A DNA stretch of 64,000 bases from Candidatus Heimdallarchaeota archaeon (lineage in GTDB: Archaea > Asgardarchaeota > Heimdallarchaeia > Hodarchaeales > Hodarchaeaceae), in the NCBI GenBank assembly GCA_011364965.1, contig RDOB01000002.1:256001-320000 (forward strand), written 5' to 3'. Under the pieces are notes generated by a model that saw only the letters and a list, made by a program, of their open reading frames with translations, had not been told where the DNA came from and searched no databases. Position 1 is the stretch's first letter. Each line of letters opens with the position of its first letter. The translations under genes and the position numbers were made by a program. Positions 53,273 to 56,010 of this stretch are shown here, piece after piece.

Positions 53273-53641
53273 TCAAAGAATATAGAAGATGAAATAAATT
53301 AACGCCCCAGAGAATGCAATTAAACCTCCGACTGTTCCACCAATTATTCCAAGGAACGCAGCTATTACAATCCAACTAGTAGTTTTGGAGTCGTGAGGTT
53401 TTTGCATAGTAGTGACAATTAGGACTGCAATTCCACATATAATTGTCACCAAACTCCATAAGAAAGATAAATTCACATCTAAGTTGAAAAAGTTCGTTAA
53501 TAGGAAGGCTGGGGGCGTTTGTTGAGTTAGGAGAGCTTGAATTCCTAATAGTATCATGAAAAGGCCCCCAATTGCTACCAATAAAACCCCAATTAGCGAA
53601 CCATATCTATACCACTTTGATTTATATTTTCGTTTTGGCAA
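53273..53641 (-). CDS. Small membrane protein
   Basis: Three to four Gly-rich TM helices. Confidence 0.7.
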   Translation of the reverse strand: MPKRKYKSKWYRYGSLIGVLLVAIGGLFMILLGIQALLTQQTPPAFLLTNFFNLDVNLSFLWSLVTIICGIAVLIVTTMQKPHDSKTTSWIVIAAFLGIIGGTVGGLIAFSGALIYFIFYIL

Positions 53642-53770
53642 ATGACTGAACCTCGGTAAGATACCTTGTTAGGTGGTATTTGAATCAATTTAAGAATTTT
53701 TTGACATGAATTTGTAACTATTTAGTTTAAAGTTACTTTCAAAAAAACAGGTATAAGAACAAGTGTTGAT

Positions 53771-54220
53771 ATGAAAATTAATAAACGCGACTCTTGGGAA
53801 AATTATTTTATGCGAATTGCACTGGAAGTAGCCACAAGAAGTACCTGTGATCGTAAACATATAGGAGCTGTCATTGTACGAGACCGAACGATTTTATCAA
53901 CTGGTTATAATGGCAGTATAAGAGGATTAGCGCATTGCGATGAAGAGGGGCATATGATGGAAAATGGACATTGTGTAAGAACAGTTCATGCAGAAGCGAA
54001 TGCACTAGCTCAAGCAGCAAAGAATGGGGTTCGTGTGGAAGCAAGTGAGATATATATAACCACATCTCCATGTTGGACGTGTTTTAAATTACTAGCAAAT
54101 TCTGGAATTACCAAGATTTATTACGGTGAATTTTATCGTGATAACCGCATATTCGATGCAGCTAAGGAAGCAAACATTCAACTAGTGCATTTAAGCATTA
54201 AGGATCTTTGCTCAGATTAA
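53771..54220 (+). CDS. dCMP deaminase (ComEB-like)
   Basis: RSTC.R.HIGAVIV, TGYNG, HAEANA, SPCWTC. Confidence 0.93.
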   Translation: MKINKRDSWENYFMRIALEVATRSTCDRKHIGAVIVRDRTILSTGYNGSIRGLAHCDEEGHMMENGHCVRTVHAEANALAQAAKNGVRVEASEIYITTSPCWTCFKLLANSGITKIYYGEFYRDNRIFDAAKEANIQLVHLSIKDLCSD

Positions 54221-54331
54221 TTATTGAAATATTTTTCAAAATAAAAAGAAACCGATGTTAATTTAAGCACTTCTCTCCCCTATAGGAAAAAAAGAGAAGA
54301 AGATTCTGAAAACCGTTATTATATTCTTCCT

Positions 54332-54712
54332 TCATATATTATATCTTTGAAAGAATTGCATACGAGATTTCTTGACTCTTTTTTTTTGTCCCTTCTTCAT
54401 TATCGTTCTACGTTTCGTTGGCTTTAATTTTTGGCTATTCTTTCTGAATGAAAATTTTTTTTGTTTCTTTGGTGAATCAGGTAATTCGGAATAATTTTTG
54501 ATTGGCGTTTTTCTGTTCTTCTTCTCAACAATGATTTCTGAGGATTGAATTTCGGAGTAGGATTTCTCATCTGATTTTGAGGCATACTGCCTTTTTTTCT
54601 TTTCTAAGAGTTTCTTCGTCCGTTCTTTTTCTTCCTCGAAATATTTGGTCGCTATATCAATTTCTGTACGGCCATATTTATTTCTTCTTGAGTGTGCTGT
54701 CATTGTAATCAC
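54332..54712 (-). CDS. Highly basic small orphan protein
   Basis: 40 of 126 residues are K/R (hand count); low-complexity, probably disordered. Confidence 0.65.
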   Translation of the reverse strand: MITMTAHSRRNKYGRTEIDIATKYFEEEKERTKKLLEKKKRQYASKSDEKSYSEIQSSEIIVEKKNRKTPIKNYSELPDSPKKQKKFSFRKNSQKLKPTKRRTIMKKGQKKRVKKSRMQFFQRYNI

Positions 54713-55010
54713 ATGTAACCAAAATCGAGCAAAATTATACTCGATGCCAGTCAGAGAAGCATCACTCGATGCTCTATTCCTGTATGTCTTCGAGGAACTC
54801 GAGGATTGTTTGACTTGTGATAACTATTTGCTTTTGAATCGCTTGGTATCAGATATTTAGTATTACTTGGGTGTACATTGCCCTTTTAATACGATTGTAT
54901 TGAATTCAAAGCCAGATTTTAAGTGTATGTATCCACTTTATCGTATCTCCAAGCTCTTGAAATTGGAATCCCTCAATAAACCAGAGATACTGTTTATTCA
55001 GTATCTCACT
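54713..55010. ncRNA. Candidate structured non-coding RNA / long 5' leader
   Basis: At least seven complementary pairs, including nested long-range helices, in ~290 nt with no credible ORF. See finding. Confidence 0.45.
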
Positions 55011-55124
55011 TAAATTTTTAAGCCTATCTATTTAGATATCTTAAGAAATAATTAGAATTTTTGAGTAATAATACTAAGCTAATCATTGTTCAAAGGTTAA
55101 AAATACATTATTTATGGGATATAT

Positions 55125-55841
55125 ATGCCTCAAATTAACGTAGTTTTCTTTAATGCGGGAGGTACATTAATTCAATTAAAAAATACAACTATTCCCAAAC
55201 TATATTCGCAAATTTTGTCAAAAATTCTAGGAAAACACATACCAGAAGAAGTAATCTATAGATGTTTTCATGAAGCAGATCAATGGGCGAGGTCTCGGAA
55301 GGTTCTTACATTATTCAATGATTTAGAACAACGAAAATATCAAAATGTTTTTTATAGTCACCTAGGTATCACAAAGAGGAAAGAAATTAATAAAATTGAA
55401 CATCTTGTGGCTCAAGATATTAATTATGACTTTGTCCTTGAAACTAACGCGAAGAAGGTATTAAAACAGCTACAGAAAGAGTATAAAATTGGATTAATAT
55501 CGAATTGGGATGAGAATCTGTTTGATATTCTAGAAGATCTTGCTATTGTGGATATATTTGATTCTATTACAATTTCAGGTGATATTGGCTATAATAAGCC
55601 TAGTCAAGAAATTTTTAAATCCGCTCTTTCAGATTTTCCAGATTCGAAGCCTAATTCAACCATTTATATCGGTGATGATTACTATACGGATATCATCCCC
55701 GCGCAAGCAATGCGTATGCATTCTATCCTTTTTGATAAAGGTCCTACGGGTATGCATGGTCATCCATTTCGCTCCGAGATGAAATGTGCTAAGATAAATA
55801 GTCTTGATCAAGTTTATCATACCATTAGTAATATCTTGTAG
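55125..55841 (+). CDS. HAD-superfamily hydrolase (subfamily IA) with non-canonical motif I
   Basis: FFNAGGTL, ISNWD, KP..EIF, YIGDDYYTDI. Confidence 0.88.
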   Translation: MPQINVVFFNAGGTLIQLKNTTIPKLYSQILSKILGKHIPEEVIYRCFHEADQWARSRKVLTLFNDLEQRKYQNVFYSHLGITKRKEINKIEHLVAQDINYDFVLETNAKKVLKQLQKEYKIGLISNWDENLFDILEDLAIVDIFDSITISGDIGYNKPSQEIFKSALSDFPDSKPNSTIYIGDDYYTDIIPAQAMRMHSILFDKGPTGMHGHPFRSEMKCAKINSLDQVYHTISNIL

Positions 55842-56010
55842 TTTCCTATGCTTTTTCCTAGTCATCTTTGGACGATTATCGATTTCCATTGAGGAAACAA
55901 AATTTCTATTCATTCTCATTTTAATAGAAATGATTAAAATAATTCCAATTATTTCTAAAATAGGGATCGTTAATTTAATTATTCATAGATTAGATTGAGG
56001 ATGTTCGAAT

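Follow-up and report, generated by a model that had tools for sequence, protein, structure and literature searches.

A candidate structured mRNA leader upstream of a genus-restricted basic protein gene in a Hodarchaeales archaeon

The non-coding segment at positions 54713-54975 of the window (the whole stretch of 64,000 nucleotides, or 64 kb, that was analysed) probably represents a hairpin-rich 5′ leader of about 290 nt, read from the minus strand and acting in cis, in the mRNA of a genus-specific basic protein of 123 aa; this is a reading that we hold with slightly better than even confidence. It is most likely that the structured leader is real and genus-specific. One of its hairpins, close to the ribosome-binding site on the 5′ side, is shared by the whole genus. 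The leader occupies the coding strand between a putative promoter and the start codon with no terminator between them, and its predicted length in relatives ranges from 258 to 354 nt. Selection on structure is indicated by the Shine-Dalgarno-proximal hairpin, which covaries and keeps a fixed position. The comparison of relatives shows the conservation, the synteny, the hairpins, the covariation of the last of them, the strand bias and the Shine-Dalgarno site, whereas we infer transcription, the start site and each functional step of the leader model. The 5′ end of the element is located 15 nt beyond the limits given in a preliminary description of this DNA, which leave out a promoter-like box (55009-55029) as well as the first hairpin's 5′ arm (54981-54990).

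The segment is contained in a 412-nt spacer between the basic ORF (54332-54703, minus strand, 123 aa) and a divergently oriented gene for a HAD-family hydrolase (55125-55841, plus strand). The ORF was originally listed as 54332-54712, and its true ATG is found at 54703-54701; it is neighboured by a dCMP deaminase gene at 53771-54220 (plus strand). The host was placed in the Hodarchaeales, among the Asgard (Promethearchaeota) archaea, by means of the database names of relatives of the ORF. Of 21 other genomes in the genus, 19 contain the basic ORF, and the query used found it in none of 62 genomes that represent 17 further genera of the class. In the relatives the gene order is kept as membrane protein, dCMP deaminase, basic ORF, spacer, HAD hydrolase and WD40 protein, with spacers of ~370-440 nt across the genus. 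A metagenome scan added 12 loci, and the deduplicated set comprised 27 distinct upstream regions; these leaders represent ~8 lineages within one genus, so that the counts given here overstate independence. No paralogous copies of the segment were detected by whole-genome blastn. A covariance model of the 3′ module of the leader gave one match per genome, always beside the basic ORF only, and this co-occurrence of RNA element and ORF is not independent evidence since the model includes the start region. It is worth adding that the best NCBIfam matches of the HAD hydrolase include pyrimidine 5′-nucleotidases (YjjG-like), which, with the dCMP deaminase, suggests a conserved pyrimidine-nucleotide context for the orphan ORF.

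All of the base pairings listed in the preliminary description could be located in the sequence. The local ones comprise ATCGAG 54724-29 with CTCGAT 54740-45, AGCATC 54758-63 with GATGCT 54768-73, and TCGAG 54790-94 with CTCGA 54798-802; the long-range ones are GCTTGG 54841-46 with CCAAGC 54949-54 and AGATA 54851-55 with TATCT 54944-48; and the outer pairing joins GAGGATT at 54801-07 to AATCCCTC at 54967-74 with one bulged C. The 9-nt repeat ACTCGATGC does occur twice, at 54739-47 and 54764-72. When folding was compared with dinucleotide shuffles, as had been advised, 54713-54975 proved moderately better than its shuffles on both strands, with a z of −2.05 on the plus strand (5 of 200 shuffles as good) and −2.36 on the minus strand (4 of 200). 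For the whole predicted leader in the ORF sense the z was −3.26, a value based on 25 shuffles only.

The characterization of the segment as non-coding, hairpin-rich and of no known RNA family was upheld. An Rfam search of 53500-56000 at E<=10 returned nothing except a match to CRISPR-DR45, and no family reached its gathering score anywhere in the 64-kb window. The CRISPR-DR45 match (55613-55636, plus strand, 24 nt, 19.3 bits, E 6.1) falls within the HAD coding sequence and is ascribed to chance. Likewise, the segment matched neither RNase P RNA nor SRP RNA nor tRNA, as the preliminary description had maintained, and ARAGORN found no tRNA. An identity as RNase P RNA was rejected, as the copy of this genome is on contig 12 (153.9 bits). 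A divergent SRP RNA was considered because Archaea_SRP (RF01857) could not be detected at E<=1 in this assembly (G000), which is 87% complete; it was rejected as well, since four leader-bearing genomes of the genus have SRP RNA at loci unrelated to the leader. Among eight same-genus genomes searched, four gave matches to RF01857, all below the gathering score (69.6-87.1 against 96.5 bits), and the genus may have an SRP RNA that departs from the Rfam model. Inspection of the alignments for C/D-box or H/ACA guide RNA features (C box RUGAUGA, D box CUGA, pocket hairpin plus ACA) did not reveal a guide RNA; locus L052 alone carries AUGAUGA...CUGA, and the boxes are not retained in other clades. 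An apparent internal repeat, between the region of the transcript start and the motif that precedes the last hairpin, was dismissed on a similarity that was not significant (mean z 0.5).

The last hairpin (H-last), AUCGAG-loop-CUCGAU at 54724-54745 on the minus strand, is located just upstream of the ribosome-binding site, and its stem is recognisable in 27 of 27 leaders, with 5-12 bp and loops of 6-23 nt. The stems of G001, G016, L041 and L047 are bulged or interrupted and were read off the alignments. At least six distinct stem sequences occur among the lineages, the core stems being UAUCGAGAC/GUCUCGAUA, UAUCGGGAC/GUCCCGAUA, AUUCGAGU/ACUCGAAU, UUCACUC/GAGUGAA, AUCCGAGAGAUC/GAUUUCUUGGAU and CGAGAAAAU/AUUUUCUCG. 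In a test anchored on the Shine-Dalgarno site, 23 of the 27 leaders had the 3′ end of the hairpin 19-22 nt ahead of the ATG, and 20 had it at 20±1 nt; from the Shine-Dalgarno site itself the distance is 8-9 nt. Gapless stems at this place averaged 7.8 bp, compared with 4.8 bp in shuffled sequences, and P was below 0.05 in 19 of 27.

Covariation across homologues, another of the checks that had been proposed, was found for H-last (54724-45). On the covariance-model alignment of the 3′ module, pairing in this helix reaches 77%, and both partners vary in seven of its nine pairs. For the two modelled helices of this module together, the covariation score was 0.317 versus 0.221 in shuffled alignments, with none of 500 reaching the observed value, and when the partners were slid the same two helices scored 0.07-0.18. 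Register errors remain in the alignment for one clade and these figures are therefore conservative.

Upstream of H-last (in the ORF sense) the 3′ module contains an unpaired conserved motif at 54776-54791, minus strand, which reads GAAGACAUACAGGAAU in this genome and has the genus consensus GAC-A-yy-CAA-n-GA; its columns are nearly invariant. It is preceded, on its 5′ side, by a small hairpin, Hp-A (UCGAG-UUC-CUCGA, 54790-54802, minus strand). Most clades have a small hairpin at this place, of the form CCCU../..AGGG, CUCCC/GGGAG or CCCUAG/CUAGGG; in fixed columns Hp-A is 57% paired, and its stem is degenerate in six clade-A genomes. Two of the local hairpins first described, at 54724-45 and 54790-802, stand where the relatives also have hairpins, while another, AGCAUC-GAGU-GAUGCU at 54758-54773 on the minus strand, is peculiar to this genome: it is an insertion absent from all 26 other leaders and stems from a local duplication of GCAUCGAGU. 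The same private duplication accounts for the repeated ACTCGATGC. On the minus strand the duplicated unit is GCATCGAGT, whose copies are 25 nt apart within 54739-54772.

The Shine-Dalgarno site is found at 54708-54713 on the minus strand. It reads AGGUGAU in nearly all relatives and UGUGAU here, and the weakened form (TGTGAT in the DNA) is shared by this genome and metagenome locus L052. In this genome AGGTGA peaks 10-15 nt before the starts of long ORFs. Since an AGGUGAU site precedes the ATG, the ORF would be translated from a leadered mRNA.

Two larger structures of the preliminary description fared less well, namely a multibranch junction closed by the long-range helices and an outer helix, GAGGATT with AATCCCTC, that was thought to act as a switch. 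For neither could a counterpart be found in the folds or alignments of the 26 related leaders, and the long-range and outer helices clash with a lineage-conserved 5′ hairpin at 54943-54990. Nothing resembling a conserved ligand-binding core was seen, so that the description as riboswitch-like is not supported. A new riboswitch, in which a ligand-binding multibranch fold toggles between the 54801-07/54967-74 helix and the hairpin at 54790 and so controls the ORF, is in our estimation extremely improbable, even though its helices can be drawn in this genome and form part of the minus-strand MFE fold, and no known family explains the region. Besides the failure to find the long-range helices in the 26 relatives, what the 27 leaders have in common is limited to short motifs and one hairpin, with no larger block of invariant core nucleotides, and the sequence diverges quickly inside one genus. 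Furthermore, the conserved hairpin leaves the Shine-Dalgarno site uncovered, and no U-tract is conserved after it; the leader alignments showed no expression platform, be it a conserved mutually exclusive pairing that hides the Shine-Dalgarno site or a terminator. The segment resembles riboswitches in being a structured non-coding RNA in cis, upstream of a gene; it differs from them in that it matches no Rfam class, conserves neither a core nor an alternative pairing, and is not connected with the product of a metabolic gene.

Several observations bear on the strand from which the element is read. RNAalifold applied to the 3′-module alignment gave −8.49 with H-last formed in the ORF sense, compared with −2.08 and no H-last in the antisense, and within the H-last stem five G·U pairs were counted as opposed to 0-1 A·C. 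For whole leaders, the mean z was −2.81 in the ORF sense versus −1.64 in the antisense, with the sense strand better in 22 of 27 (25 shuffles each). Oligo-T tracts are the signal for transcription termination in archaea, and on the sense strand of the leaders only two T-runs of at least 5 were observed where composition predicts 11.3, with 25 of the 27 leaders devoid of any such run; A-runs were about as expected (31 observed, 36.6 expected). This asymmetry is in keeping with transcription across the entire spacer in the ORF sense and speaks against long transcripts in the HAD sense. The local hairpin energies of H-last favoured neither strand, and the counts of G·U versus A·C in the other hairpins were balanced. 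The Logan contigs with relatives of the ORF are multi-gene DNA contigs and not transcripts. RNA-seq runs DRR620298 and DRR620299, for strains HC1 and SC1, are listed in the preprint 10.1101/2025.02.26.640444.

The same data can be set against a view of the spacer as DNA signals, according to which divergent promoters and palindromic sites for regulators would serve the ORF and the HAD gene, and the hairpins would be by-products with no role as RNA. We regard this as unlikely. It is true that the spacer separates divergent genes, that the strongest conservation is in A/T-rich boxes, that the 5′ half shows no significant covariation, and that joint changes can likewise arise in the two half-sites bound by a dimeric regulator. 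The spacing of the arms, by contrast, is variable (6-23 nt in H-last and 8-36 nt in the 5′ hairpin), unlike that of operator half-sites; H-last contains G·U and almost no A·C and is predicted in one strand only; and both the excess in folding energy and the depletion of oligo-T are strand-asymmetric.

The preliminary description had also proposed that the minus strand runs from a TATA-like element into the basic ORF, and this arrangement was borne out. Box 1, a BRE/TATA-like block at 55009-55029 on the minus strand, reads AGATAGG-CTTAAAAAT-TTAAG in the ORF sense. No other block of the spacer is as well conserved in the alignments, where it is present in 27 of 27 copies with the consensus GATAAGCTTAAAAATCTAGGG. 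The upstream regions of tRNA genes displayed no clear promoter signal, and positional k-mers before long ORFs revealed the Shine-Dalgarno peak only and no promoter consensus. For this reason, a local consensus was derived from the RNase P RNA genes, with the sequences upstream of them taken from 13 genomes of the genus. These promoters have a purine-rich GAAAAG followed by TTTAAAWA or CTTATAAA, and their TATA box begins ~29-34 nt before the RNA. In the ORF sense box 1 (GATAAG plus CTTAAAAA) fits this consensus; in the HAD sense its BRE position is pyrimidine-rich, CCCTAG. By this resemblance, box 1 is a putative promoter for a transcript in the ORF sense, and the predicted start site is at ~54990-54992, at the foot of the 5′ hairpin.

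The 5′ hairpin, H1 (54943-54990, minus strand), extends from GUAUCUCUGG to UUGGAGAUAC at the predicted 5′ end of the transcript. Here and in most lineages a stem at this position begins 30-32 nt after the start of the TATA element, with arms that differ by lineage (GUAUCACA/UGUGAUAC, GUAUCAUA/UAUGAUAC, GAGAUUCAA/UUGAAUCUU and UGAAAUAUUUG/CAGAUAUUUCA) and with loops of 8 to 36 nt. A covariance model for the 5′ half aligned all 27 copies. The arms of H1 and those around a second box (box 2) were 59% paired, compared with 28-37% in the slid-partner control, and their fixed-column covariation over all clades was not significant (0.136 versus 0.138 shuffled).

Box 2 is a TATA-like element at 54914-54925 on the minus strand, in sense CACTTAAAATCT, with the consensus TGAC-TAAACTTATAAGA, and lies 98-99 nt after box 1. 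It could serve as a second promoter or, alternatively, represent a loop motif that is conserved. The former would give two transcription units, in which box 1 drives a short H1 RNA of ~50-100 nt and box 2 the mRNA of the ORF with a leader of ~200 nt; were box 2 the real mRNA promoter, H1 would be outside that transcript. The resemblance of box 2 to box 1 (TARRCTTAWAARA) and to some TATA boxes of the RNase P RNA genes of the genus, together with the fixed distance between the two boxes, speaks for such a division, which we nonetheless consider improbable. There is no oligo-T terminator between H1 and box 2, or elsewhere in the leader; box 2 is degenerate in two genomes (G001 and G016), both of which still have the ORF and box 1; and in several clades it is flanked by complementary arms, of ambiguous register, as in an RNA hairpin.

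The remaining part of the leader, at 54803-54913 on the minus strand, is variable. It forms genome-specific hairpins that appear in MFE folds (GGG/CCC at 54869/54881 and AATAC/GTATT at 54888-901), and diverges too fast for alignment between clades. Read in the ORF sense, the aligned leaders all keep one succession of parts, namely box 1, H1, box 2, this variable part, Hp-A, the unpaired motif, H-last, the Shine-Dalgarno site and the ATG. An upstream frame of ~17-20 codons (MLxNNK...HGRK...) was noticed among the clade-A leaders (L022, L023, L024, L028 and L029), some 120-180 nt ahead of the ATG. Several close relatives have it open and others have it cut down to 8-10 codons; as it also lacks a Shine-Dalgarno site, it probably does not code for a peptide.

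The protein encoded downstream is very basic. Its N-terminus (MTAHSRRNKRGRTEIDIATKYFEEE...) and its C-terminus (...KRxRxQYFQRYNV) are conserved, while the middle is variable, of low complexity and rich in Lys and Ser. The basic ORF is a genus-restricted orphan family: among 1.84 billion representative proteins, a profile search brought up seven clusters only, and searches of Pfam, NCBIfam and the PDB yielded no relative of the protein and no known RNA-binding domain. AlphaFold2 predicted one confident helix, at residues 17-42, and no confident fold elsewhere. A likeness to eukaryotic nucleolar basic proteins (LLPH, YBL028C_N) emerged from a language-model (atlas) search and was set aside, with scores of 0.81-0.84 that are below the lead level of 0.9 and no HMM support. 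Several relatives of the ORF use a TTG start.

The strict co-occurrence of RNA element and ORF, and a protein that is extremely basic with little confidently predicted structure, speak for another reading, in which the leader is excised, or persists, as a stable non-coding RNA and makes up a particle with the adjacent basic protein, the two being a dedicated RNA-protein pair. This we judge to be very unlikely, as the RNA has no 3′ end signal before the ORF, most of it evolves quickly, and its G+C is not raised, unlike that of the stable RNAs of this genome. The G+C of the leader is 0.366, compared with 0.348 for the genome and 0.421 for RNase P RNA, and fits an mRNA leader more than the RNA of a stable RNP.

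According to the mRNA-leader model, transcription would start ~30 nt downstream of box 1, at the foot of H1 (54943-54990), and the transcript would read through the short hairpins into the ORF without meeting a terminator. H1 may protect the end of the mRNA, and H-last with the conserved unpaired motif could form a protein-binding platform that sets ribosome loading. The protein that binds this platform may be the basic product itself, which would amount to autogenous control. A more specific proposal is that leader and protein constitute a lineage-specific RNA-protein regulatory pair, in which the protein would bind the Shine-Dalgarno-proximal hairpin and the motif and throttle its own translation, or else that the leader belongs to a new class of cis-regulator that senses a signal; taken jointly, these two options are conceivable, and we would place them on the doubtful side.

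Known systems offer partial parallels. Autoregulatory leaders include the mRNA of the ribosomal protein L1 operon in Methanococcus and the 5′ UTR of the L7Ae gene in Sulfolobus, where L7Ae binds a K-turn. Similar to these, the present segment has a structured 5′ element near the ribosome-binding site, a hairpin that covaries and keeps a constant distance to the start, and a gene for a small basic protein. Unlike in these, the protein is of no known family and its RNA binding is putative, no K-turn or rRNA-mimic motif was seen, and the leader, at ~290 nt, is much longer. Long 5′ UTRs have been mapped on mRNAs of Methanosarcina mazei and other methanogens, and they too comprise leaders of several hundred nt upstream of a Shine-Dalgarno start; the evidence for the present leader is, in contrast, comparative and concerns one gene in one genus of Hodarchaeales. 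Bacterial mRNAs can carry stabiliser hairpins at their 5′ terminus, an example being the ompA leader. As in ompA, one hairpin is predicted at or within a few nt of the 5′ end and a second one just before the ribosome-binding site, but here the host is an archaeon with presumed beta-CASP 5′-3′ exonucleases and the start site is a predicted one.

To our knowledge, descriptions of cis-regulatory RNA elements from Asgard archaea are very few, and we know of none tested in the Hodarchaeales, the archaeal order placed closest to eukaryotes. The locus provides a compact and testable case: it combines a promoter-like box and a hairpin at the 5′ end with a second hairpin, which covaries at a fixed distance from the ribosome-binding site, and has the orphan basic protein as a possible partner. 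If the leader model is true, post-transcriptional control in this lineage would for the first time become approachable, and a gene family that lacks annotation would gain a function. The locus has no bearing on a long-standing open question, and a structured mRNA leader is a familiar kind of element.

On the opposite side of the spacer, a TATA-like stretch, TTAAAAATAC, was observed at 55097-55106 on the plus strand. Because this sequence is centred ~24 nt before the ATG of the HAD gene, the HAD mRNA of this genome may be leaderless or nearly so. In the relatives, the nearest A/T box is ~45 nt upstream of the HAD gene, and A/T-rich candidates are present between box 1 and the ATG.
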